Shown here: positions 10,672 through 27,019 of the stretch, piece after piece
Position numbering within the stretch: the first letter of the stretch is position 1
Layout: each line of letters begins with the position of its first letter
DNA from: Acetivibrio sp.
GTDB lineage: Bacteria > Bacillota > Clostridia > Lachnospirales > Lachnospiraceae
Assembly: GCA_036658435.1 (NCBI GenBank)
Contig: JAVXEO010000004.1
Location: forward strand, 120 to 64,119
Direction: 5' to 3'
Length of the DNA: 64,000 bases
Program-made: the position numbers and the translations under genes
The notes under the pieces: generated by a model
Databases searched by the model: none
Seen by the model: only the letters and a program-made list of their open reading frames with translations
Told to the model about the DNA's origin: nothing

Positions 10672-12054
10672 TTACTGTTCTCCAATTTCCACCAAACGTC
10701 TTTTTGCATCCGTTACACGGTCAGAATCCGGATACTCATTTATAATCTTATTATAATATTCTTTTGCTTTCTCATATTCACCCAGACGGTGATAGGCTCG
10801 GCCCATAAAATAAATTGCTTTTACATTATTGGAATCCATGGTAATGGCCCGTTCTAAGATAACAATTGCGTCTTCATACTTCCCACGGTTATAAAGAACA
10901 CGTCCCTCTTCTGCCGTACCTTCCGCTGCGTCCGCAAACGTACTTTCTTTAATTATTTTGTAAATTTCCTTCGCCTTTACATTCTCAATTGCACTGGGTT
11001 TTACCTGTGCTAATTCCTTTGCAGCATGGATCTTATCTCCATCTATATAGTACTGAATCGCAGAATAGAAGTTATCATATACCTTCTTATCCATCCTTTT
11101 TTCTTTTAATTGGTTTAATTCTTTTTCCAAGGATTTCATTTGCGTTTTCAGAGTCTCGTTTTCGTTTTCCAATTGGGTGCCCTGAATGCTCTGTACCGCC
11201 ATTTCATCGCTATATTTTTTAAACTGTTCCTCATACTGAGACGCAATGCTCTTTTTTGCCGTTGGTACAATTAAAAAATAGACCACACAAACGCCTAAAA
11301 TTGCACCAATTAGTAAGTTCAAATACGGCCAAAAGTTAAACTTTTCTTCCTTATAGGAACCTTGGCTAAACGTCTGTGGACTGAGATTCTGTTCCTGAAA
11401 TGTTCCGGCATGGTCACTGGATAACTTCTCACCGGAATTAGTAAAGGTTCCTGGTAAGGAATCCATATATTTCAAGGTCAATGTATTATTTCTATCAATT
11501 TTATTTGCTTTTGAAAGACATTTTGCAGCTTTTCTATTGTCTCCTGCCTTCATATATAAAAGTGCCAGCAACTGATAGCTTCGAATGAATTTAGGGTTTA
11601 AGCTGCTTACTTTTTCAAGCTGCATAATGGCCAGATCTTCATTTCCCTGTTTTGCATAAGTTAATGCACTATTATACTTTTTAATGGTTTGGTTTATACT
11701 CTCCAAGCTGGATGCATTCTTTTGAATCTGGTTCATGTAATTATCTGCTGGATTGTCATCATTTTGGAAGTTTTTGCTGAGAACCCACTGGCTTAAGGCT
11801 TCCACCACTTCTCCCATTTCATAGTATACCAAACCCAGGAGATTTCTGGCTGCTGTATTCTTTTTATTCAGTCGAAGACTATTTTCCAGGGAAGCTGCCG
11901 CTCCGGACAGATCTCGGACTTTTGCCTTTTCCAGCCCAACATTGTAATACATATTGGAGGCACTGACTGCTCTTTTATATACCGTTAAATCTTGTCCACA
12001 ATCACATCTTGTATTATGGTAAGATATTTCTTTCCCGCAAACCGGACAAATCAT
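10672..12054 (-). CDS. Zinc-ribbon / TPR-repeat membrane protein
   Basis: 460 aa. N-terminal CPVCG...CDCG zinc ribbon, TPR-like repeats, one central TM helix (LNLLIGAILGVCVVYFLIV), a coiled coil, and more TPRs at the C-terminus. Confidence 0.75.
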   Translation of the reverse strand: MICPVCGKEISYHNTRCDCGQDLTVYKRAVSASNMYYNVGLEKAKVRDLSGAAASLENSLRLNKKNTAARNLLGLVYYEMGEVVEALSQWVLSKNFQNDDNPADNYMNQIQKNASSLESINQTIKKYNSALTYAKQGNEDLAIMQLEKVSSLNPKFIRSYQLLALLYMKAGDNRKAAKCLSKANKIDRNNTLTLKYMDSLPGTFTNSGEKLSSDHAGTFQEQNLSPQTFSQGSYKEEKFNFWPYLNLLIGAILGVCVVYFLIVPTAKKSIASQYEEQFKKYSDEMAVQSIQGTQLENENETLKTQMKSLEKELNQLKEKRMDKKVYDNFYSAIQYYIDGDKIHAAKELAQVKPSAIENVKAKEIYKIIKESTFADAAEGTAEEGRVLYNRGKYEDAIVILERAITMDSNNVKAIYFMGRAYHRLGEYEKAKEYYNKIINEYPDSDRVTDAKRRLVEIGEQ

Positions 12055-12287
12055 TCCGCTGCCTCCTACTTGTTCTTTATTTCTTTTAGCATATCACGAA
12101 TTATATCATTTACATCTGTAGAATCATTCTTATATATGGCATCTTCTGCCTGCTCAATTTCTAAACTAGGCTGAAATTTTTCTATTTCTTCATCAAAATT
12201 AATCATCCGTACCTCCTAATATTTGCGTATACTCATCATACTCAAAATATGCAGTAAATGCAATAAAATCCTTTCGTCAGGAATCGA

Positions 12288-13673
12288 CTAAATATTAGCC
12301 TTAAATTCAATTTCATTGGCTTTTTTAAAGTAAGTTACATTATAATTTTCAGATTCCATCATTTTTGTTACTCCATTAATGGATACTTTACTTCCTCTGT
12401 AAATACTTTTTAAAACAACCAGTCTTGCCGTAGTAGAATTTTCGATTTTTAGTTTTGTATTTTTCAGTTCATTTTGTAAGCTAGAAACTACCGCATCCTT
12501 TTCTATCTTTATTCGCATAAGATGAAGTTTCTTTTCTGCTAAATCCGGATTGTTTCCTTTTTCCAGAATCTTATTGATTTGCATAATTCCGGTTTCCAAT
12601 CGATTTATTTCGTTTAGTGTATCATCATATTTTTCTTTTACTTTATTCATATGTTCATATATTTCTTTATCAACACCCAGTATTATTTCTGTTTTTACTT
12701 CTGACATATTTCCAATAATGGTGGCTTCTACTCTTTGAATAGCTGCAATCGAGCCGCCTACAATGATACCTTTTTTACCGGATACGATTATACTTTGTTC
12801 TGACATCATATGGCAGTTTAAGATGGCATTTGCTTTTATACTGCCTTTGGCATAAATAGTTGTCTGTTCAAAGAATTTACCGGAAACATCTCCACCGGCC
12901 CGAATTTCTCCTCTTCCGCTTCCCTGCATTCCATTCTTTAGAATAACATCTTTTCCTGCAATCAGCTGGGCACCCTCAACATGTCCATTTATGGTAATAT
13001 TTCCTCTTGCTGTAATTACCATTCCCGTCACAACCGTTCCCCGAACAAATACATCTCCTGCGAAATTAATATTTCCGGTAATTATGGTAACGTCCCCATC
13101 TATGGTTATCATGTTTAAAACATTAAGACGCTCATTTTCGTACTCAACCTTTCCGGTTAGAAGGGACGTATAGACTTTTTTGTCTTCCGATATGGCAAAT
13201 CCTTTTCCTTTTAATGGAGTAAGTTCTCTTCCTGTTTTTGCTAAAATTGGTTTTCCAAATACATCAACTCCATTACTTCCCGGCTCTGCAGGTTTATAAT
13301 GTACAATTTCTGCTCCCTCTTCTACGGCTGCAACATCCTGCATATTTCCATAGTCTACCGATCCATCCGGCAAAATTCTGGGTTTCTTATCTTTCACAAT
13401 CTGAAATAAAAACTGATATTCTCCATCTTTTCCATCCTGTACCGGAGTGCCTTCCGCTACCAGGGTTTCTGCAAAGTAGTCTTTTGTCTCAATTAATGCC
13501 TGAAGTACTTCTTCTTTGATTCCCTCCAGCACCCCATTTTTTTCAAGAAGCTCTTTTAGGTCCTTCACCTCATAGGACTCGTCTAAACTAGGTGGACACA
13601 GACTAAGAAACGCCTGGGTTCCATCTTCTGATATCTTAACCGTGGAATGGTTTGTTTCTATATTAATTGCCAT
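12288..13673 (-). CDS. FapA-like (DUF342) protein
   Basis: 461 aa. Central Gly/Val/Ile-rich beta-helix-like repeats (GDVTIITGNINFAGDVFVRGTVVTGMVITARGNITINGHVEG...) and a C-terminal coiled coil, as in flagellar-assembly-protein-A/DUF342 proteins. Confidence 0.7.
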   Translation of the reverse strand: MAINIETNHSTVKISEDGTQAFLSLCPPSLDESYEVKDLKELLEKNGVLEGIKEEVLQALIETKDYFAETLVAEGTPVQDGKDGEYQFLFQIVKDKKPRILPDGSVDYGNMQDVAAVEEGAEIVHYKPAEPGSNGVDVFGKPILAKTGRELTPLKGKGFAISEDKKVYTSLLTGKVEYENERLNVLNMITIDGDVTIITGNINFAGDVFVRGTVVTGMVITARGNITINGHVEGAQLIAGKDVILKNGMQGSGRGEIRAGGDVSGKFFEQTTIYAKGSIKANAILNCHMMSEQSIIVSGKKGIIVGGSIAAIQRVEATIIGNMSEVKTEIILGVDKEIYEHMNKVKEKYDDTLNEINRLETGIMQINKILEKGNNPDLAEKKLHLMRIKIEKDAVVSSLQNELKNTKLKIENSTTARLVVLKSIYRGSKVSINGVTKMMESENYNVTYFKKANEIEFKANI

Positions 13674-16353: not shown

Positions 16354-16426
16354 TTTTTCTTACATTTGTGACTGTTTCCTGCCGCAATCGCAAATTCAAT
16401 CTATAGCCTTCGCTATCATAACTACA

Positions 16427-16455
16427 AGATTAGATAAAAAGTTCCCTCTTGTCAA
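16427..16455 (-). promoter_or_regulatory. Candidate sigma-A promoter for valS
   Basis: Minus strand reads TTGACA (16455-16450), 17 nt, TAATCT (16432-16427). The -10 is weak. Confidence 0.3.
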
Positions 16456-16470
16456 GTATTTTTCATAAGC

Positions 16471-17637
16471 TTATAAATTCAGGTCGTAGTTTCTTAAAGT
16501 ATCCATAACCTCGTCTCTCATTTTTTTGTTTTCATCCACAAATTCTTGAATTTCTTTTTTATTTTGTGCGTAAGTCTTATTATTATAGTCTAGGTTGTCC
16601 CGAAGTTTCTGTCGCCTGATATTCAGACGATGACGCACCTCTACCATTTCTCTTTTGTCGTTAATGGCCTCTGCCTGGTATAACCAGATTTCCCCATCTG
16701 AAATCTGGTATTTCTTTAACTCGCAAAGGAGTAAATCTTTTGCTTCCTTTAATTTTTCTGTATTTAATTCATATTTTTTTTCATTTTCCCTTGCTATTAA
16801 AAATTGTTTCCATATATATTCCAATTCGGTGGAACTACTCACATCAAATTTCTCATAAGCATATTCTAAAAGACTCATATTGTTTACATACTTAATTTTT
16901 ACTTTATTTAAAAGTCTAATGGCCTTATGCAATTTTCTACCAACTAACTGCATATCCTGACGGTTTTGATTTGCCTGTATAAAAATATAAAATCCTATGA
17001 TTGCTGCTAATACAATTGTTAAAAGGAAAGGAATTGCCATACTCTCTTCAAATGCCAAAGACAGTACCATCATTAGTGCAAACACGCTAATCACTAATAC
17101 CGCCATTGTTGTCACGGTCTTCTTTAAAAATGCCTGCTTTTCAATTAATTCTTCCTGCTCAAAAAGCAAGGCTCCCTTTTCTCCCTCTAAATGATACAAA
17201 TCCCCTTTAATAATACCATTATAACTCTCATTTCCACGCATGGTCTTTAATTCTTCTGCAATCTCTTTCCCCTGCTTCTCCAACATGCTTCTCTGCTGAC
17301 TGGTAATTTTTTCATCTTTTCCTTTATACTTTTCTCTTTCTTTTGTATAAAGAGTGATGTTTTCTGCTGCCTTTTCTATCACTTCTCGTTCATCCGAAGG
17401 AATCATATCGATTTTTTGAATATCTGTTAAATAAGAACTAACAATATGATATTCCCCCTTCATTTCTTCTATTTGGCGCTTTATTTCTACCATTTGCTCG
17501 CAGCAATCCACTACGTTTGTAATACTAACGGCTTTCTGTGGCTGTACTTCCTGTACCGTTTTGAGAACTTCTTCTTTCTGTAATGGAGTCCCCATTTTTT
17601 TTACTGATTTCTTAGAAAATCTTTTAAACAAGCCCAT
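16471..17637 (-). CDS. Hypothetical coiled-coil protein with central two-helix membrane hairpin (operon gene D)
   Basis: Long open frame. Start placed at ATG 17637 (MGLFKRFSKK...), preceded by AGGAAG at 9 nt and overlapping the stop of gene C by 14 nt. The track start at 17685 has no SD. Two adjacent TM helices (MAVLVISVFALMMVLSLAF / IPFLLTIVLAAIIGFYIFI) are flanked by heptad-rich segments. I recognise no family. Confidence 0.7.
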   Translation of the reverse strand: MGLFKRFSKKSVKKMGTPLQKEEVLKTVQEVQPQKAVSITNVVDCCEQMVEIKRQIEEMKGEYHIVSSYLTDIQKIDMIPSDEREVIEKAAENITLYTKEREKYKGKDEKITSQQRSMLEKQGKEIAEELKTMRGNESYNGIIKGDLYHLEGEKGALLFEQEELIEKQAFLKKTVTTMAVLVISVFALMMVLSLAFEESMAIPFLLTIVLAAIIGFYIFIQANQNRQDMQLVGRKLHKAIRLLNKVKIKYVNNMSLLEYAYEKFDVSSSTELEYIWKQFLIARENEKKYELNTEKLKEAKDLLLCELKKYQISDGEIWLYQAEAINDKREMVEVRHRLNIRRQKLRDNLDYNNKTYAQNKKEIQEFVDENKKMRDEVMDTLRNYDLNL

Positions 17638-18433
17638 TTTTATACTCTTCCTTCCATTTTGCAATGATTGCATAAAGATTTTCATAATAGATATCCACTT
17701 TTCCTTCTTCTTTCAATACATCCATTTCGGAAAGCTTCTGGTAAATGTCCAAGTGCTCTGCCTCTAGCATCGTCTCTTCTATTTTATTTAATAGCACTTC
17801 CTGACTTTTCTCTTGTTCCGAAAGATCCTTCTTCGTTAATTTCACACAAAATAAATAGGCCAATAGGGAATCCCGGCTCTTATTCTCTTGATATGCTTCT
17901 TCAAAGGTATTCGCTGCATCCATATAAGAGGAGGAATACAATTTTGTAATTCCCATATTATGTAAAACATTTCCTTTGAAAAGTTCCGATGTTTTTTCTG
18001 TTTTTACACGTTCCAATATTTCATTGTAAACCTTTGCTGCATGAAAATAATTTCCATTCTTTAAAAAATTATCCCCCCGTAACTTGTTTCTCTCTAGTTC
18101 GTTTACCTTTGCAAGTTTATCCATGGTTTTTATTAAATCTTTAATTTCCTGCTCTTCGTAATAATCTGTACTGCATAAAATGGTTACTACCATATCTTTT
18201 AAAGTCTCTTTTTGATGAAGCATCTTCTTTAGTTTATTTGCGGTTACCGGCATATTCCATTCCTTTTCTATAAAATCCATTAGTTCCAGTGTGAAATCCC
18301 TGCTAGAAAGGGTATAGATATTATTATATATATAGTAACACAATTCTTCCATTGAATAAACTTTCGTACTCGTAAGAGGAAAAAGAAAGGGTGTTTTTGA
18401 AATATTACCGGTACACAATATTAATTTTCCCAT
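17624..18433 (-). CDS. Hypothetical TPR-like helical protein (operon gene C)
   Basis: 269 aa, no signal peptide or TM helix. TPR-like pairs (GDNFLKNGNYFHAAKVYNEILE; GNVLHNMGITKLYSSSYMDAANTFEEAYQ). SD AGGAGA overlaps the stop codon of gene B. Confidence 0.7.
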   Translation of the reverse strand: MGKLILCTGNISKTPFLFPLTSTKVYSMEELCYYIYNNIYTLSSRDFTLELMDFIEKEWNMPVTANKLKKMLHQKETLKDMVVTILCSTDYYEEQEIKDLIKTMDKLAKVNELERNKLRGDNFLKNGNYFHAAKVYNEILERVKTEKTSELFKGNVLHNMGITKLYSSSYMDAANTFEEAYQENKSRDSLLAYLFCVKLTKKDLSEQEKSQEVLLNKIEETMLEAEHLDIYQKLSEMDVLKEEGKVDIYYENLYAIIAKWKEEYKNGLV

Positions 18434-18444
18434 TCACTATTCTC

Positions 18445-19710
18445 CTATATCTCCAGTCTTTTTTCCCAGATTCGGTTGGTAGAGGGTGCGTAGTCACCAA
18501 ACCCTTTATCTTTTATGGTTACAATGCAGGTTCTTATGTCTTCAAAATGAAAAGAAACCTCGAATCGCTCCATTCTTTTCCCACGTTTTGGCATATCTTC
18601 CAAGGTAATTACCCGAACTGTTTCCACTTTTTTCATAGGATCGAATATGTTTAGCTGCAATTCATCCTCTTCGTCAAAAATCAGGCAGATTTTGCTTTCG
18701 GCTTCTTTCCAATAAGTTCCCGTGGATATTACTTCTGTCTTCTGAACTTTTCCATCTCTATATAAACAAAGAGAAATGCTTTTTTCCAATATTCCTTCCC
18801 CTAAAAGTGTAAACTTCTCTTTGAATTCCTCCGTATTCATGTATCTTGCACTATAACAGGCACCATGTGTATAGATATTGGGTCCCCTAAATCCCCGTTT
18901 TCCCCTGCATAGTTCCTGAAGCACCCGGTCTGACCAATTCGACAAAAAACCTTCTCCTACAAAGTAAAGCGTTGAGATGCTTTGTTTATTAAGAATTTTT
19001 CCAGCAAAGCCCAGAAAATGTTCTGTAAGCGTTTCATATTCTCTATGTTCAAGCATTTCATAAGTAATTTCCTTTGTGCCTTCTCTTTTTTCCAGTCCAA
19101 TTAACATGGGCCGTACTTTGCGGTTAATATGTATTTGATAATACATCATCCCCTTTTTGGAATAATCAAACAATGCAACGTCCTGACTCCACAGTTCTCT
19201 CTTCTGGTTCAGAGCATAGTACAAATAACTTTGACTATGTTCCTGAACAAAGGCACGATTTTTTTCAATTCCCATATGCTCCAATGCTTTATAGATCATT
19301 TCTACTAAAAACAAATTCATTTCTTCCAAGGTTACTACAATTTTATGAATCCTATTGTCTCCATAATATTTTTGTAAAAGCAAAAGGGTTTTTCTAAAAT
19401 ACTTTTCCAAAATAACGCTGCCATCAAAGACGGAATCATAAATAACAAAAGATTCCTTTCTTTTAATTTGTTCCAATATATTATCTATTAAAATACCATC
19501 CTCATGTTCTGCCATCATACAGGCATCTTCACCAAAGAGCCATTCTCGCTTTGTCTCGGTCACTCCCAAAGTAGTAGGAATAAAGTGATAGTTTTCGCCT
19601 GTCGTTCCACCAATTGTTTCAATTACGCCAGTCACCGGATGGAAACAACTGATTTGTGAATATTGATTTCCCAAATCAAACCCTATATCCAGGTCTTTAT
19701 TTTTTTCCAT
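18445..19710 (-). CDS. Divergent, truncated Hsp70-like protein: actin-fold NBD plus SBD-beta-like domain, degenerate phosphate loops (operon gene B)
   Basis: 421 aa. DIGFDLGNQYSQIS compares with Hsp70 IGIDLGTTNS. VALFDYSKKGMMY compares with DLGGGTFD. LYFVGEGFLSNW compares with ILVGGQTRMP. The C-terminal ERFEVSFHFEDIRTCIVTIKDKGFG compares with [24 protein letters not shown]. There is no lid and no EEVD tail. SD GGAG at 8 nt. Confidence 0.7.
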   Translation of the reverse strand: MEKNKDLDIGFDLGNQYSQISCFHPVTGVIETIGGTTGENYHFIPTTLGVTETKREWLFGEDACMMAEHEDGILIDNILEQIKRKESFVIYDSVFDGSVILEKYFRKTLLLLQKYYGDNRIHKIVVTLEEMNLFLVEMIYKALEHMGIEKNRAFVQEHSQSYLYYALNQKRELWSQDVALFDYSKKGMMYYQIHINRKVRPMLIGLEKREGTKEITYEMLEHREYETLTEHFLGFAGKILNKQSISTLYFVGEGFLSNWSDRVLQELCRGKRGFRGPNIYTHGACYSARYMNTEEFKEKFTLLGEGILEKSISLCLYRDGKVQKTEVISTGTYWKEAESKICLIFDEEDELQLNIFDPMKKVETVRVITLEDMPKRGKRMERFEVSFHFEDIRTCIVTIKDKGFGDYAPSTNRIWEKRLEI

Positions 19711-19750
19711 TTTCTGCTCTCCATCCTTTCTATATGCCGGTCATAAACAT

Positions 19751-22700
19751 TTATAATATTTTTATAAGTGTTTTCCCTGCGTATTTAATTTTTGCATAAT
19801 ATTTCATTAAAGCCAACATTGTTTTTTCGTCCTGCATTTCCTTTGCTGTAAGCATTAAATTTAACAGTTCAAACATACTTTCATTGGATTCTTCATTCCC
19901 TGCATTTTTCATATCCACACGAACGCTTTCGGTAATAATTTCTTCTTTTCCGTTGTCTTCTGAAATATAGTACTGAAGGACCTCATCTTGAAAAAGGAGA
20001 AATTTGATTACATGAATGCCATAATAGCTGTCTTCCATTGTTTCCGTTATAAAGGATTCCCTGTTTTCCCCGTTCTCTCTAAAGTAGTGAATTTTAACAC
20101 TGTTTTTCGGATTGCATTTATATTCTACAAAGTAATGACTGCGAATTTCTAAAGGAAGTGTCATTCTGTCAGAAAATTTCTTGTAACAGGGAAGAAGAAT
20201 TCCCCGCTCTGTCATTTTCTTTATCTGCTTTTCACAAAATGCAAGTTCTTCCTGGGCAAGTGTTTCCTGTCCACTATAATAAAATAATAAGGCTAAGATA
20301 CAAACCGTACTTTCCTCAAAGCAATTCTCTTTTTTTAATAGTTCAAATATTTCAGGATGAACAATCCGTTCATTTAAAAGGTATTTATATGCGTTGTAGC
20401 ATAAGAAAGCTTTTATAATGGTTGGGTCTCCTCCTTTGTTATAATAGGAGTGAAATACATCATAGGCAGTCATTACATAGCTTTCCCCAAATAACATTTG
20501 ACCAAGAAGTTTTTCTTCTAACCCATAGGTATCTAGCTGAAAGTTTTGTGCACAATTCCACAGCTGCAGAAGCATCTTGGTACTTCCCTCAAAGTGCTCC
20601 ATTAAATAGCAAAGGATTATCTCATTATATTTTCCTTCCTGAAATAAGTAAAAAGCAAGATCTAATTGAAACTTATTTTTTATTTTGTGTCCGTTCTTTT
20701 CTATTTCCTCTGTGCAAAAACGAATCAACTGATTTGTTGGAATTCCATCAAATCCATATTCCCGAAGTGAAAATACTGTTTTTTCATAAAGTTCATGTAT
20801 CATGCAATAAGAAATAGCCTTAGAACGAAAATCCGGTTTCAAAAGATCAAAATCTGCAATAAGAAGCATTTCTTTTAATGCCTCATTTTCCATAGCCTCA
20901 AAGTAATAAGAAATCAATCTTTCATAGCATCTTCCTTTATAATAATTTTTGAATCCCGGCAATAAAATACATCTTCTTTGTACATAAATGGAATACTCGT
21001 TGTTTTTTTGATATTTATCTATTTTCTCAAATAAATTCATCATCAGCATGGGACTATTTTTACATACCTCATAGCACTTTTGTGCCAATCCATGAATATG
21101 CAGCAGTTCCGTTAATTGGAATGAAATACTTTCTCCATAGCGGTTTCCATTTTTATCTATAAATACAATGCTTGGAGATTCTGTAAAAACTTGGATATAT
21201 CCAATTCCATCCTTTAAAAGAGTGTACTCTTCCTTTTCCATTTCTTTATGTGAAACATAAACGCCTATTATATTTTCATTGGTGCAAACCAATTTATGGC
21301 GAAACATAATTTCTGAAAGTGCCGGAGAAATTCCTTCCTTCACCTCTTCTAGTTGAATAAACTCCTGATAAAGTACGGACAGATTTTCATCCATTCTTTC
21401 TTCCTTAATCTGTTCGATTGTAAATTTCTGCATTTTCTTGTGATAAAGAAGATATGTGTTTTTATCTTTATTTTTATTTTTTACTATGTAGGCATAGAGA
21501 TAAGCCTTTTTTTCCCAAGTGAGATTATTATCATATTGGAAAAAAAGAAGAAGGGAGGAGGGAATTTTTTTCTGATAATCTTCCGGCATGGTATATAAAT
21601 AATATTCATATAAATTTTCTATCTTTAAATTTTCTTCTTCCCCCAAGGAAAACCATGGGAAATATTTTGCATCCTTTTTTTTATTTTGAATGAGTATCTT
21701 ACAAATACTAAATAATATTTCTTTACTTTTCGTATGGTCATAAAGAGCAAATAAAGGTTTTAGAATCCAAAAATCAGCCTTTCCTTCCTGTTCTGCTGTA
21801 AAGCAATACAGATCAATTAACTCCTGGTTTAAACAATTCATTCGGATTCCCCAGCTTAAAACCCGTAACAGTACCGGTGCAAAAGCTTCCCTTGCTCTTT
21901 TGTCATTCTGTAAGCAAAGACAGGCTTCATAATAGAGAACCGGACTATTGACTCCTTTTTCTAGTTTGCCTTCAATATCCTTCCACATTTTTTCGCTATT
22001 TCTATCATAATCCCCATCTAAATACAATAAAAACCACAGCATCTGCCATTTATCAAATCCGTTCTCATAATAAGTGCGAATACTGGAAGCTGCCTCTTCA
22101 ATGTATTCCTTCTTTTTGGTATATAAAGCGCGTAAATACAGAAAAGATGAATAAAACAGTATCGATTCTTCTTTCATGGCCTCTTGATTTTCTTCCATAT
22201 CTTTTATAACATCTTCTGCCAGTGGCTGGTGATCCATAATATAATAGTGAAGTTTCAAAAGCTTGTGTTCCCAGAAAGAATGGGTCTCTTTTCCATTTTT
22301 TATAATCGCAGACAGTTCTGCAATATATTGATCTGGTGCAATTTGATTGGTTCTTAAGTTCAAATAATTCTGAAAGAAAATAAGAATCTGTTCTTTCCTT
22401 TTTCGTTGTTCTTCGTGCTTTTTCTTAGGAAGCACCGAAACACTCACCGTTACTTCCATAGTGGAAAATATGGTCTGTATTGTGATTCTGCCAAAATTAT
22501 TTCCCTTTCGTAAAAAAGAAGCATCTACCAAAAATTCCAAATCAAAAGAATTACCAATAAAATCTTTTGTTGTAATTTCCTTCTTTTCTAAAACTAAAAA
22601 TGGAGCATCCCCCTCTATTTGAATCTTTTCATAACCCCAGTTGTCCTTCATTATTGTTATTTTGTCTGCAAAATTAGTGAGACATTTTGTGTATAAAAGT

Positions 22701-23293
22701 TCCGTCCGGTCTACCGTAATATTGATTTTGGACTTTTTTTGTATTGCAATTAAGAATTCTTCGAGTGCAACATTCCTATCCTTTCCTTTGATTAAGCTGG
22801 CATAAAGGGTTTTCAGATGTTCTTCTTTTAAAAATATTCGTCCAAAATCTCTGGTTTCAAAAAGCTGTAGTGCTTCTTCCCAATCACTTTGTGCAAGGTT
22901 AGCAAAATGAAATAAATCCTTGATTTTCCCTAGCGATGTCTGTCCATACGCTTCCGTTACTTCTATTGAAATTGGAAGGTTAACCTCTCCGCAGCAGCTG
23001 ACAATAAAAAGTTTTCCCTTGCTTTTTTCACCGGCTATGGCTTTTTTGGCATCAAAACGGTATTGGATTTCATTGGTTTTTCCGTTAAACATAGGATTTA
23101 TAATATGTAGTTCCGGTAAAGAAGAATAGACAATTCCCTTCATTTTCTTTTCCTGTTCATTTGAAATCCATAAACTTCCCGTAGCCACTGAACCAATTTC
23201 TGCTATAATCGAAATTTGTTCTTCAGACAATAAAATTTCCGGTAATTCATATTCAAAATTTTCCTTTGCCAAACGTTTTATTTTCTCTCTCAC
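19751..23293 (-). CDS. Hypothetical 1180-aa cytoplasmic protein: N-terminal beta-sandwich domains plus long alpha-helical repeat region (operon gene A)
   Basis: Single uninterrupted 3.5-kb frame with GTG start preceded by GGGAGGA at 8 nt. No signal peptide or TM helix. The first ~290 aa have an alternating beta-strand pattern (GSLWISN..., KGKLFIVSCCGEVNLPISIEV, GRITIQTIFSTMEVTVSVSV). The rest is helix-rich and rich in Y/F/L/K/E. I have an unverified memory that similar Clostridia proteins are listed only as DUF families. Confidence 0.75.
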   Translation of the reverse strand: MREKIKRLAKENFEYELPEILLSEEQISIIAEIGSVATGSLWISNEQEKKMKGIVYSSLPELHIINPMFNGKTNEIQYRFDAKKAIAGEKSKGKLFIVSCCGEVNLPISIEVTEAYGQTSLGKIKDLFHFANLAQSDWEEALQLFETRDFGRIFLKEEHLKTLYASLIKGKDRNVALEEFLIAIQKKSKINITVDRTELLYTKCLTNFADKITIMKDNWGYEKIQIEGDAPFLVLEKKEITTKDFIGNSFDLEFLVDASFLRKGNNFGRITIQTIFSTMEVTVSVSVLPKKKHEEQRKRKEQILIFFQNYLNLRTNQIAPDQYIAELSAIIKNGKETHSFWEHKLLKLHYYIMDHQPLAEDVIKDMEENQEAMKEESILFYSSFLYLRALYTKKKEYIEEAASSIRTYYENGFDKWQMLWFLLYLDGDYDRNSEKMWKDIEGKLEKGVNSPVLYYEACLCLQNDKRAREAFAPVLLRVLSWGIRMNCLNQELIDLYCFTAEQEGKADFWILKPLFALYDHTKSKEILFSICKILIQNKKKDAKYFPWFSLGEEENLKIENLYEYYLYTMPEDYQKKIPSSLLLFFQYDNNLTWEKKAYLYAYIVKNKNKDKNTYLLYHKKMQKFTIEQIKEERMDENLSVLYQEFIQLEEVKEGISPALSEIMFRHKLVCTNENIIGVYVSHKEMEKEEYTLLKDGIGYIQVFTESPSIVFIDKNGNRYGESISFQLTELLHIHGLAQKCYEVCKNSPMLMMNLFEKIDKYQKNNEYSIYVQRRCILLPGFKNYYKGRCYERLISYYFEAMENEALKEMLLIADFDLLKPDFRSKAISYCMIHELYEKTVFSLREYGFDGIPTNQLIRFCTEEIEKNGHKIKNKFQLDLAFYLFQEGKYNEIILCYLMEHFEGSTKMLLQLWNCAQNFQLDTYGLEEKLLGQMLFGESYVMTAYDVFHSYYNKGGDPTIIKAFLCYNAYKYLLNERIVHPEIFELLKKENCFEESTVCILALLFYYSGQETLAQEELAFCEKQIKKMTERGILLPCYKKFSDRMTLPLEIRSHYFVEYKCNPKNSVKIHYFRENGENRESFITETMEDSYYGIHVIKFLLFQDEVLQYYISEDNGKEEIITESVRVDMKNAGNEESNESMFELLNLMLTAKEMQDEKTMLALMKYYAKIKYAGKTLIKIL

Positions 23294-23312
23294 TCCGGGG
23301 TTCCTCCCATAT

Positions 23313-23340
23313 TTGCTTTTTTATAAAAAAACGATATAAT
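23313..23340 (+). promoter_or_regulatory. Candidate divergent promoter of the cobD-like gene
   Basis: TTGCTT (23313-23318), 16 nt, TATAAT (23335-23340). It sits back-to-back with the -10 of the opposite promoter. Confidence 0.4.
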
Positions 23341-23344
23341 AGTA

Positions 23345-23374
23345 ATTATAACACTGTAACCCTAGAACATTCAA
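23345..23374 (-). promoter_or_regulatory. Candidate sigma-A promoter of the four-gene operon
   Basis: Minus strand reads TTGAAT (23374-23369), 18 nt, TGT-TATAAT (extended -10, 23350-23345), about 45 nt upstream of the GTG start. Confidence 0.5.
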
Positions 23375-24568: not shown

Positions 24569-26878
24569 TTATAGTAATTCTACATATTGTTTGATGTTTT
24601 GTACGGATACATGACTGTCTGCTTTTTCTCCATTAAGAACAAGCAATGTGGGTGCCTGTCGAATTCCATACTTTTTGACCATATCTGCATTTTCTTCTGC
24701 TAAGGCTGTTTCATAGGGAACTTTGGCATTATCTAATATATTTTTTGCCGTTTTACAGTTTGGGCAAGTTTTTGTTACAATTAAAATTCGTTTTATTTTC
24801 ACTTGCGTTTTTTCTATATTGTATAGTTTACGTTCTTTAAATTCCTGACTCTTGCCTGCGTTCCAGTTTTGAACCGGTCTGTAATACCCGGTAATACGGC
24901 TATATACCTCTGTTTTTACGCCACATTCCGGACAAATATAGTGTTCTCCCGGAATATAACCATGTTCTTTACAGATGGAATACGTTGGAGAAATGGTATA
25001 ATATGGCAAACGATAGTTTTCTGCAATTTTTTTAACCAAGTTTGCCGCTGCCTTCCAGGAGGGAAGTTTTTCTCCTAAGAAAGCATGAAATACCGTGCCT
25101 GATGTATACAGGGTCTGGAGTTCATCCTGAATATCCAATGCTTCGAAAATATCATCTGTAAAGCCAACCGGAAGATTGGTACTATTGGTATAGTATGGTG
25201 TTTCATTGTCCTCGCAGGCCGTCTTTATATCTGGAAACTGCTCTACATCGTGCTTTGCCAAACGATAGGTTGTCGATTCCGCCGGAGTTGCCTCTAAGTT
25301 GTACAAATCACCATATTTTTCCTGATAATCAGAGAGTCGATCCCTCATATGATTCAATACTTCTTTTGCAAACTTCTGCGTCTTTTCGCTGGTCATATCT
25401 GCCTGTAGCCAGTTTGCATTCAAACCCACTTCATTCATGCCAATTAAACCAATCGTTGAAAAATGATTGTCAAAGCTTCCAAGATAACGTTTCGTATAAG
25501 GGTAGAGCCCCTCATTTAATAATTTTGATATAATCGTTCTCTTTGTCTTTAATGATCTTGCTGAAATATCCATCATTTTATTTAATCGGCGGTAAAAATC
25601 AGCCTCGTTCTCTGAAAGATATGCAATTCTAGGTAAGTTAATGGTAACAACACCAACGGATCCTGTACTTTCACCACTTCCAAAAAAGCCACCGGATTTT
25701 TTTCGAAGTTCCCGAAGATCAAGGCGTAAACGGCAGCACATGCTTCTTACATCGTTTGGTTCCATTTCACTATTAATATAATTAGAAAAATAAGGAGTTC
25801 CATATTTTGATGTCATTTCAAACAACAGCTTATTATTCTCTGTTTCAGACCAGTCAAAATCCTTTGTAATGGAGTAAGTAGGAATGGGGTATTGGAATCC
25901 GCGTCCATTGGCGTCTCCTTCTATCATGGTCTCGATAAACGCTTTGTTTATCATATCCATTTCCTTTTTACAGTCTTTATACTTAAAGTTCATTTCTTTT
26001 CCACCTACAATAGCATTTTGCTCTGCTAAATCACTTGGAATGGTCCAATCCAGCGTAATATTGGAAAAAGGTGCCTGCGTTCCCCAGCGACTTGGAATAT
26101 TTACTCCATAGATAAAGGATTCAATGCAATTTTTCACCTGATTGTAGGAAAGATTATCTTTCTTTACAAAAGGGGCCAGATAGGTATCAAAAGAAGAAAA
26201 TGCCTGGGCTCCTGCCCATTCGTTTTGCATGATACCAAGAAAGTTAACCATTTGGTTGCAGAGGCTGGCTAAGTGTGCTGCCGGTTTTGAAGTAATCTTT
26301 CCGGTAACTCCCCCAAGCCCTTCCTGAATCAATTGTTTTAAGGACCAGCCTGCACAGTATCCTGTAAGCATGGATAAATCATGAATATGTATTTCTGCAT
26401 TTCTATGAGCATTTGCAATTTCTTCATCGTATATTTCAGAAAGCCAGTAATTGGCTGTAATTGCGCCGGAGTTGCTTAATATCAGTCCACCCACAGAATA
26501 GGTGACCGTAGAGTTCTCCTTTACACGCCAATCGGATAAATGTACATAATTATCCACAATTTCCTTATAGTCTAAAATCGTAGACTTCATATTTCTAATT
26601 TTTTCCCTTTGTTTCCGGTATAAGATATAGGCTTTGGCAACGTCGGCATAACCAGACTGTTCCAATATTGCTTCTGCACTATCTTGTATGTCTTCCACAT
26701 GAACCAGTGAATTTTTAATATGTGGTTCATAATGTGCTGTTGTTTTTAAAGCAAGAAGGTCTACAATACTCTGATTGTACTGCTTATTTTGCGCTTCAAA
26801 CGCTTTCATTATTGCTTCGCTGACCTTTTTCAAATCAAATTCTACAATTTTTCCATCTCTTTTTACTACCTGATACAT
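24569..26878 (-). CDS. nrdD: Anaerobic ribonucleoside-triphosphate reductase (class III) with fused C-terminal thioredoxin-fold (CPNC) domain
   Basis: N-terminal ATP-cone (MYQVVKRDGKIVEFDLKKV). C-terminal Zn-ribbon CPECG and glycyl-radical motif RITGYY. About 77 extra residues follow, with a CPNC redox motif. Start moved to ATG 26878 (GGAGG at 9 nt). The track's 11-codon extension lacks an SD. Confidence 0.9.
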   Translation of the reverse strand: MYQVVKRDGKIVEFDLKKVSEAIMKAFEAQNKQYNQSIVDLLALKTTAHYEPHIKNSLVHVEDIQDSAEAILEQSGYADVAKAYILYRKQREKIRNMKSTILDYKEIVDNYVHLSDWRVKENSTVTYSVGGLILSNSGAITANYWLSEIYDEEIANAHRNAEIHIHDLSMLTGYCAGWSLKQLIQEGLGGVTGKITSKPAAHLASLCNQMVNFLGIMQNEWAGAQAFSSFDTYLAPFVKKDNLSYNQVKNCIESFIYGVNIPSRWGTQAPFSNITLDWTIPSDLAEQNAIVGGKEMNFKYKDCKKEMDMINKAFIETMIEGDANGRGFQYPIPTYSITKDFDWSETENNKLLFEMTSKYGTPYFSNYINSEMEPNDVRSMCCRLRLDLRELRKKSGGFFGSGESTGSVGVVTINLPRIAYLSENEADFYRRLNKMMDISARSLKTKRTIISKLLNEGLYPYTKRYLGSFDNHFSTIGLIGMNEVGLNANWLQADMTSEKTQKFAKEVLNHMRDRLSDYQEKYGDLYNLEATPAESTTYRLAKHDVEQFPDIKTACEDNETPYYTNSTNLPVGFTDDIFEALDIQDELQTLYTSGTVFHAFLGEKLPSWKAAANLVKKIAENYRLPYYTISPTYSICKEHGYIPGEHYICPECGVKTEVYSRITGYYRPVQNWNAGKSQEFKERKLYNIEKTQVKIKRILIVTKTCPNCKTAKNILDNAKVPYETALAEENADMVKKYGIRQAPTLLVLNGEKADSHVSVQNIKQYVELL

Positions 26879-27019
26879 ACTGATCATCCTCCAAAAAAAT
26901 CTGTATTTCATGAAAATTTCTACTTATTACAGTAGCATACATACTTTTTATTGTCAACTTAAATACCACATATAGTGCCTGTTTTTTTATTTTCAACTAA
27001 ATGTTGAAAAACGCCCATT

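Follow-up and report, generated by a model that had tools for sequence, protein, structure and literature searches.

A conserved four-gene cluster of Lachnospiraceae with a degenerate Hsp70-like protein: a candidate membrane-associated complex

Introduction

Do four neighbouring genes that keep company across a bacterial family belong to one system, and what would their products build? The question is raised by a stretch of 64,000 nucleotides (nt) from Acetivibrio sp. (assembly GCA_036658435.1, contig JAVXEO010000004.1, positions 120 to 64,119), which is referred to here as the window. Its minus strand carries a block of four open reading frames, A, B, C and D in that order, encoding proteins of 1180, 421, 269 and 388 residues. 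An initial annotation of the window had described the block as an operon built around B, a degenerate Hsp70-like protein. The comparisons below demonstrate that the four genes travel together in a fixed order. With a probability of about 0.5, we read them as one conserved operon whose products form a single cytoplasmic complex containing B as a pseudo-chaperone.

Results

Linkage of the four genes

One genome per species was scanned with two peptide patterns, and the best 80 loci were fetched. The pattern scan detected relatives of B in 232 species, all of them by name Lachnospiraceae or unclassified Clostridia, with both gut and environmental bacteria among them; Velocimicrobium was confirmed as Lachnospiraceae. 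The order A-B-C-D is found in 80 of the 80 fetched species loci wherever the contig reaches, a recurrence that exceeds chance. The median gaps are 32 nt between A and B, 19 nt between B and C, and 24 nt between C and D, with a median of 782 nt between D and valS. The flanks of the 80 loci are mostly syntenic, with a divergent aminotransferase gene upstream and valS downstream. These fixed flanks therefore point to vertical inheritance.

Two more loci, L084 and L085, keep A-B-C-D amid unrelated flanks. B is about 27% identical there, and C and D were confirmed by family hidden Markov models. One of the neighbourhoods contains purine-biosynthesis genes, the other GntR and ABC-transporter genes. 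The four genes are co-conserved, and their order is independent of the flanks. The initial annotation had made co-conservation in related genomes a check on its proposal, and the proposal survives this check in the 80 loci and in the two displaced ones.

Just upstream of the cluster in L084 (L084:1-5519), several large genes lack an annotation and a further one encodes a Pvc16_N-domain protein, with a ribulose-phosphate epimerase gene in between; the content of this region suggests a contractile-injection-system-like cluster.

Fusion of B and C

The family of B comprises 1971 clusters at 50% identity in an exhaustive profile search. Nine proteins of 703–737 residues occur among the top 150 B representatives, and all nine, together with the protein P0037, are end-to-end fusions of B and C (n = 10). 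They were found in cultured isolates (Clostridium sp. KNHs205, Butyrivibrio sp. NC3005) and on many independent contigs. In a rough neighbour-joining tree of the B domain the fusions are spread over six or more separate clades. For five singleton fusions, the nearest unfused relative displays 45–65% identity, as against 28–37% to any fused one. Because fusion has occurred repeatedly and independently, the fused proteins are strong evidence that B and C are in direct contact.

Gene junctions

The coordinates of the genes and of the features discussed below are collected in Table 1. The spacer between A and B is 40 nt, and AAGGATGGAG precedes the ATG of B. That between B and C is 11 nt, the Shine-Dalgarno sequence GGAG of C overlapping the TAG stop of B. 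The open frame of D spans 16471–17685 (404 residues). Because the N-terminal motif is conserved in about 70 orthologues, which all begin there, the start of D was set at the ATG at 17637 (MGLFKRF...), giving 388 residues. This ATG overlaps the last codons and the stop of C by 14 nt and has the Shine-Dalgarno sequence GGAAGGAAGAG upstream; each of A, B, C and D is preceded by a Shine-Dalgarno sequence of its own. In the public annotation D is a hypothetical protein of 400 residues (RSB37_01315, from the NCBI metagenome-assembled genome 'Acetivibrio sp.'); conservation favours 388.

Table 1. Features of the four-gene cluster and their positions in the window. The DnaK counterparts in B are putative, since they come from a low-probability hhalign alignment to an approximate sequence of E. 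coli DnaK.
Feature	Position	Strand	Basis and remarks
Promoter of A, sigma-A type, extended -10	23345-23374	-	consensus scan; TTGAAT-18-TGtTATAAT, in the 109-nt divergent intergenic region before A
Gene A	19751-23293	-	GTG start, 1180 residues
A 20-124, Ig-like beta-sandwich	in 22433-23293 (A 1-287)	-	AlphaFold2 model
A 127-183, helical insert, most conserved	in 22433-23293	-	invariant alignment columns; motifs KDLFHFxNLA and ALEEFLIAIHKK
A 192-287, second Ig-like beta-sandwich	in 22433-23293	-	AlphaFold2 model
A 291-662, TPR-like alpha-solenoid	in 20174-22423 (A 291-1040)	-	AlphaFold2 model
A 665-729, small beta domain between both solenoids	in 20174-22423	-	AlphaFold2 model
A 736-1040, second TPR-like solenoid	in 20174-22423	-	AlphaFold2 model
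A 1053-1127, C-terminal (third) beta-sandwich, then terminal helices	19913-20137	-	AlphaFold2 model
Gene B	18445-19710	-	421 residues
B 1-299, reduced Hsp70/actin-type nucleotide-binding domain	18814-19710	-	profile, hhalign, AlphaFold2, Foldseek; phosphate-1 motif GFDLGN kept
B 300-421, hydrophobic linker FTLL and eight-stranded SBD-beta	18445-18813	-	alignment, profile, model, Foldseek; invariant KDKGFGE loop
DnaK Asp8, putatively B Asp12			hhalign; conserved
DnaK Lys70, putatively Asp/Glu in B family			hhalign
DnaK Glu171, putatively His/Tyr in B family			hhalign
DnaK Asp194, putatively B Asp182			hhalign; mostly kept
DnaK phosphate-2 GGG (196-198), putatively S-K-K in window B			hhalign; variable in family
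DnaK Thr199, putatively B Gly187			hhalign; invariant
DnaK Asp201, putatively a hydrophobic residue in B			hhalign
Gene C	17624-18433	-	269 residues
C 1-100, conserved N-terminal domain	18134-18433	-	family alignment; MGKLILC, EELCYYIY, ILCSxDYYxExEI
C 101-269, TPR-like repeats (about 110-200) and C-terminal helical tail	17624-18133	-	profile against PDB, TPR_2
Gene D	16471-17637	-	388 residues, start set by conservation
D 1-11, hydrophobic-polybasic N-terminal peptide	17605-17637	-	M-G/A-hydrophobic-hydrophobic-x-x-hydrophobic-K-K-K-K; composition in 71 sequences
D 169-224, transmembrane hairpin	16966-17133	-	two helices, 5-residue outer loop EESMA; 56 residues

Transcription signals

The -35 element, the TG and the -10 element of the promoter before A recur unchanged in L001-L004, the closest four orthologous loci, whose proteins are 48–57% identical. 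In 15 of 66 loci, distant ones included, the strict extended -10 pattern precedes A. Inside the four-gene block, the window scan detected nothing resembling a terminator on the minus strand. Short internal gaps and a single conserved promoter fit one transcript. The layout given in the initial annotation (four genes, gaps of 40 and 11 nt, a 14-nt overlap of C and D) matches the junction sequences throughout. Its claims that a promoter is present only before A and that internal terminators are missing were both reproduced by the window scan, and the sigma-A-type consensus of that promoter was borne out; the same elements are kept in L001-L004.

The start codon of A is weak in most species, being TTG in 37 of 68 loci and GTG in 10 of 68; an ATG opens B in 66 of 70 loci, and C has one in 75 of 78. 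The weak codon suggests a conserved down-tuning or regulation of the translation of this giant protein. In the 5′ leader of A, on the 3′ side of the -10 element, a block of the form TATCTGTATTTGTAATTATAC...TTTTT...AAATTGCAAAT is conserved in L001-L004 (L001:6345-6432 and equivalents). It is partly present in the window at 23294-23344 (ATTATA...GCAAAT) and possibly serves as an operator or leader element. Rfam yielded no family at threshold over the whole 64-kb window, neither a riboswitch nor a T-box, and none matching the leader of A. At the other end of the block, the 117-nt spacer between D and valS (16354-16470) contains a TTGACA motif, while nothing resembling a minus-strand terminator was detected there. 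T-box leaders are frequent at valS in Firmicutes.

Protein B

B is a clear member of Pfam DUF5716_C (E = 8e-89, 298 bits, cut-off 34.7). Its AlphaFold2 model has a predicted local distance difference test score (pLDDT) of 91. When the model was searched with Foldseek, nearly all of the top 50 matches were Hsp70-family chains over both domains, the best being DnaK 4ani (E = 8e-20). The matches include DnaK, BiP and Hsc70, plus the structures 6sr6 and 7x3k of the ribosome-associated complex (RAC), which contain Ssz1. A profile built from 36 family members matches DnaK colinearly, in the N-terminus of the nucleotide-binding domain (NBD) and in strands 6–8 of the beta subdomain of the substrate-binding domain (SBD-beta). 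The aligned segments are vGfDLGneySqis of B with vGIDLGTTNSVVS of DnaK, and ...ikDKGFGe with ...AKDKGTGK. As a single sequence B has no match in the PDB; DnaK was found by the family profile only. Pfam HSP70 (PF00012) is unlisted for B even at E = 0.1. The window and the fetched loci contain no native DnaK from which an Hsp70 profile could be built.

The NBD of B has about 295 residues as against about 380. Over the corresponding part, DnaK exceeds B by about 90 residues; in the model, about 25 residues take the place of subdomain IIB. Between the two domains the alignment displays a conserved F-[TL]-L-L/FLxLxE segment, at the place of the VLLLD linker of DnaK. The alpha-helical lid is absent: B ends at residue 421 right after the eighth strand, and so do all unfused members of the alignment. 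The model thus gives B the fold of an Hsp70 NBD with an SBD-beta and no lid.

Several residues that serve catalysis in DnaK appear substituted in B (Table 1). Asp12, the counterpart of the phosphate-1 aspartate, is conserved, and the adenosine motif G-x-G is invariant in the B family. These substitutions point to a loss of ATPase cycling. The label 'degenerate Hsp70-like' is a fair one for B.

Tryptophan 334 of B (window about 18709-18711) is invariant and lies in an enlarged loop, AGTxWYE, between SBD-beta strands 2 and 3; DnaK has a short turn only between these strands. In place of the missing lid, the W334 loop might fill or cover the peptide cleft of B.

Protein C

The family profile of C matches tetratricopeptide repeat (TPR) proteins in the PDB (E = 8e-5), and TPR_2 matches 10 of 36 family members, with a best E of 2.8e-10. 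The family alignment gives TPR only when compared with Pfam. The best TPR matches are designed TPR proteins, regulators of the Rap/NprR type and kinesin light chain; weak profile matches are the TPR domains of Sti1, FKBP51 and Tah1. The N-terminal 100 or so residues, which are conserved in the family, have no sequence match in Pfam or the PDB.

Protein A

A matches Pfam DUF5717_N and DUF5717 over its full length (E = 2e-261 and 6e-86; 869.9 and 288.7 bits; cut-off 25), and its AlphaFold2 model has a pLDDT of 87. Foldseek against the PDB gave domain-level matches only, none with a TM-score above 0.15. The N-terminal immunoglobulin (Ig)-like sandwiches match ciliary central apparatus proteins, the SPD-2 domain of CEP192 and 2qsv, which we take to be Ig domains of the ASH/MSP/PapD-like kind. 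For the solenoids, the matches are chains from the Ski2-3-8 complex, from Pol II-PAF complexes and from IFT-A. No enzyme fold is among the Foldseek and model matches, and the profile of A against PDB sequences yielded nothing significant (best E 0.34). A hydropathy scan of A, B and C detected no hydrophobic segment. From its modelled domains, A is most likely a large scaffold or platform.

Protein D

The alignment orders D into an N-terminal motif, a variable charged linker, a helical core, a two-helix hairpin and a second helical arm. The N-terminal peptide has a median charge of +4 and is followed by an acidic linker (71 sequences); such hydrophobic-polybasic peptides resemble both DnaK-preferred peptides and short membrane-targeting sequences. 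The first helical, coiled-coil-like core is conserved as CEQIxExxxQIEEAKxEYxAVTSYLxDIQKID, and the second coiled-coil-like arm as LLNKVKIKYVNN ... EMVEVRHRLNVRRQKLRERIDYN. Kyte-Doolittle windows exceed 1.6 solely at residues 169–224, with basic residues flanking both sides, and both soluble arms are predicted to be cytoplasmic. For D, neither Pfam nor the PDB contains a relative, and the family alignment gives scattered sub-threshold Pfam matches only. At 90% identity the family divides into 1047 clusters, and the named entries among the 120 listed are all 'hypothetical' or 'putative membrane protein'.

The initial annotation had read the four proteins from their sequences as a cytoplasmic beta-sandwich and alpha-solenoid giant (A), an Hsp70-type NBD plus SBD-beta without a lid (B), a TPR-like protein (C) and a membrane hairpin with two coiled-coil arms predicted to be cytoplasmic (D). 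All four descriptions hold: the domains of A are seen in its model and it has no hydrophobic segment, that of B is upheld by profile, model and Foldseek, that of C by the PDB profile and TPR_2 matches, and for D hydropathy and alignment agree.

Databases and literature

Scans of A–D with NCBIfam, PADLOC and PHROGs returned nothing meaningful, and PADLOC found nothing in four neighbours either. Relatives of B were found neither on phage contigs (scan) nor on plasmids (tblastn). An origin from a mobile element was rejected, as B has no phage or plasmid relatives. The HPD tripeptide does not occur in A–D, and A, C and D have no DnaJ or GrpE match in Pfam, as the initial annotation had stated for the four proteins; such partners may be encoded elsewhere in the genome.

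A literature search for the names and accessions of DUF5716 and DUF5717 (PF18980, PF18984, PF18983, IPR043770) and for Hsp70-like/TPR systems returned nothing relevant. The literature searched mentions neither the four-gene linkage nor the relation of B to Hsp70 nor the B-C fusions. The earlier claim that no system of this composition has been described is in keeping with the profile and fold searches, which place none of the proteins in a characterised pathway.

Neighbouring genes

Between valS and spoIIAA-spoIIAB-sigF, the window contains genes for a FapA-like (DUF342) protein and a TPR protein of 460 residues (10672-13673), which are syntenic in many related loci. On the other side of the block, at 24569-26911, lies a gene for an NrdD of 780 residues with an ATP-cone and a C-terminal glutaredoxin/thioredoxin-like domain (residues 708–762).

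Discussion

A model of the complex

In the model that we propose, B and C, the latter as an obligate direct partner of B, would form a tight pair, as the fusions suggest, and the platform A would carry this pair. The role of A as a platform is argued from its invariable linkage and its all-scaffold architecture. In most lineages the assembly would be anchored by D on the cytoplasmic side of the membrane, a role argued from linkage and topology. Because the SBD-beta and a hydrophobic linker segment are kept while the lid and, apparently, the catalytic residues are lost, B most likely acts as a static or slowly cycling peptide clamp or adaptor, not as a foldase of the DnaK type. The N-terminal peptide of D would either bind the membrane or be clamped by B. 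That A and D join the complex, that B has ceased to cycle and that the role is a housekeeping one are inferred from these features taken together. The operon is chromosomal, inherited vertically and apparently expressed constitutively, since the flanks are fixed, the sigma-A promoter is conserved, and phage and plasmid matches are missing. Candidate cellular roles are the organisation of the envelope or morphogenesis, or membrane-proximal protein handling. The more specific picture, of a Lachnospiraceae-specific machine in which a catalytically silent Hsp70 clamp and a TPR protein sit on an Ig/TPR platform at the membrane, is tentatively offered as a possibility.

Several observations weigh against the proposed complex. 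At least two lineages (L081; L082/L083) have no D beside the cluster, and the tether is therefore dispensable. In L081, which bears a fusion, GlpP stands at the place of D. In the P0044 lineage (L082/L083), A-B-C is directly followed by valS, and there is no D within 10 kb. Because B is kept where D is absent, the D peptide cannot be the sole ligand of B. An amphipathic helix at the N-terminus of D finds no support, its moment not exceeding that of shuffled sequences (0.343 vs 0.358 on average); the peptide is hydrophobic and polybasic only. With Asp12 and G-x-G conserved, B could bind, and even hydrolyse, nucleotide by way of other residues, and the equivalences between DnaK and B on which the loss of catalysis is argued rest on a low-probability alignment to an approximate DnaK sequence. 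In Roseburia sp. AM59-24XD (L030), A matches positions 1–954 only and C 1–140 only, and D has an internal stop, which indicates that the system is not essential everywhere. One internal stop each is also present in C of L024 (Anaeromicropila herbilytica) and in D of L080; the defects in these three loci are signs of decay or of sequencing errors.

The initial annotation had spoken of a membrane-tethered scaffold or chaperone-like machine. The membrane tether is not universal, given the lineages without D, and a chaperone-like activity is doubtful because the catalytic positions appear substituted. In the L082/L083 lineage, A has 1096 residues and is without profile positions 185–341, a span that takes in the second beta-sandwich as well as the first helices. 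This hints at a docking site for D, a weak lead because L081, also D-less, has a full-length A.

Downstream of valS in the D-less L082 (L082:14884-17173), there are two genes, one for an XpaC-like membrane protein (PF10112) and one for a TelA-like protein. The XpaC-like protein was considered as a cryptic homologue of D and rejected, as it gives no match to the D profile.

Alternative explanations

B might instead be an ATP-driven, specialised chaperone that cycles with non-canonical residues, with A or C, or both, replacing the J-protein and the exchange factor, and D bringing the machine to the membrane to serve a dedicated client, perhaps a membrane or secreted protein. The Hsp70 domain order is complete in B, with the hydrophobic linker FTLL/FLxL and all eight SBD-beta strands; the phosphate-1 aspartate and the adenosine G-x-G are conserved, and the loss of IIB would make an exchange factor needless. 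However, the apparent equivalents of Lys70, Glu171, Thr199 and GGGT are substituted family-wide, clients could not be trapped by a lid that B does not have, no partner has a J-domain or an HPD motif, and no candidate client gene is conserved beside the operon. We consider such a chaperone unlikely. A morphogenetic complex of sporulation or germination is brought to mind by spoIIAA-spoIIAB-sigF and the spoVA operon at about 5.9–10.6 kb of the window, which lie downstream of the cluster, 6–10 kb away, and by the many carriers from spore-forming genera (Anaerocolumna, Anaerosporobacter and Mobilisporobacter by their record names). Yet the promoter is a conserved sigma-A extended -10 promoter and not of the sigma-E, F, G or K type, valS, the FapA-like gene and the TPR gene separate the cluster from the spo genes, and the cluster in L084 and L085 sits among purine-biosynthesis or ABC-transporter genes. 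It is also present in Butyrivibrio and Roseburia, which are known as non-spore-forming genera. A role in sporulation is thus quite improbable.

An anti-phage or conflict system, with B as an NTPase-like sensor, a TPR protein, a large protein and D as the membrane effector, would fit superficially, in that one protein has an ATPase fold, another has TPR repeats, a third is large and made of repeats and the fourth is a small membrane protein. The L084 cluster, too, adjoins the Pvc16_N-domain gene. Against such a system stand the lack of PADLOC and PHROG matches and of copies on phage contigs or plasmids, the fixed syntenic position across 80 species, the housekeeping type of the conserved promoter, and the fact that no nuclease, protease, TIR or pore-former domain was found; we regard it as very improbable. 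That the four genes are functionally unrelated neighbours, joined by nothing more than shared ancestry, is scarcely credible. All carriers belong to one bacterial lineage, the synteny is partly inherited, and the aminotransferase gene and valS are syntenic as well with no obvious functional link. The four-gene order nevertheless survives a total change of flanks, the gaps are operon-like, and B and C have been fused independently at least six times.

Relation to known systems

The proposed clamp has to be set against the systems that it resembles. DnaK and B have the same domain order and fold and share the motifs GxDLG and KDKG-x-G. In contrast to DnaK, B has no lid, has lost most of IIB, probably carries substitutions at the catalytic positions, has no partner with a J-domain, HPD motif or GrpE likeness, and falls below the Pfam HSP70 threshold. 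Ssz1 of the yeast RAC is likewise derived from Hsp70 and has a truncated substrate-binding region. It is a constitutive structural partner and not a cycling chaperone, and is bound to the ribosome with the J-protein Zuo1. Ssz1 is eukaryotic and has a J-protein as its partner, whereas the partners of B are A, C and D, and there is no sign of common descent beyond the Hsp70 superfamily.

Like the TPR co-chaperones of Hsp70/Hsp90 (Hop/Sti1, CHIP and FKBP51/52), C possesses TPR repeats and is tied to an Hsp70-like protein. The analogy with these co-chaperones, drawn in the initial annotation, stands for the TPR fold of C and fails for B, which ends in a beta-strand (...NRIWEKxIxL) and has no EEVD-type or acidic tail; C has in addition an extra N-terminal domain. 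PilM-PilN and FtsA-FtsN offer a further analogy, and an analogy only, in that an actin-superfamily protein stands beside a membrane protein with a short, conserved, basic N-terminal peptide. PilM and FtsA grip the N-terminal cytoplasmic peptide of their membrane partners, PilN and FtsN. No homology of these proteins to D or B was found, and B is kept where D is absent. In Pfam, A and B are clear members of DUF5717 and DUF5716, families with no function assigned there, while C and D are in no family.

Implications

A and B were thus already catalogued as DUFs and C and D are unclassified; what is newly described is their composition as a system. Lachnospiraceae are abundant, health-relevant gut bacteria whose cell biology is mostly inferred from Bacillus and Clostridioides. 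In B, a chaperone seems to have been turned into something else: the lid, IIB and apparently the catalytic residues have been lost, and the protein has been fused repeatedly to its TPR partner. Culturable carriers of the cluster include Anaerocolumna, Velocimicrobium porci, Herbinix, Clostridium sp. KNHs205 and Butyrivibrio sp. NC3005. A phenotype, once found, would provide annotation for two Pfam DUFs and two unclassified families together. If the machine built around a silent clamp is real, these bacteria would have an organising or cytoskeleton-like assembly, serving for example envelope growth, cell shape or the positioning of other machines, that has no counterpart among the chaperone, division or secretion systems described.

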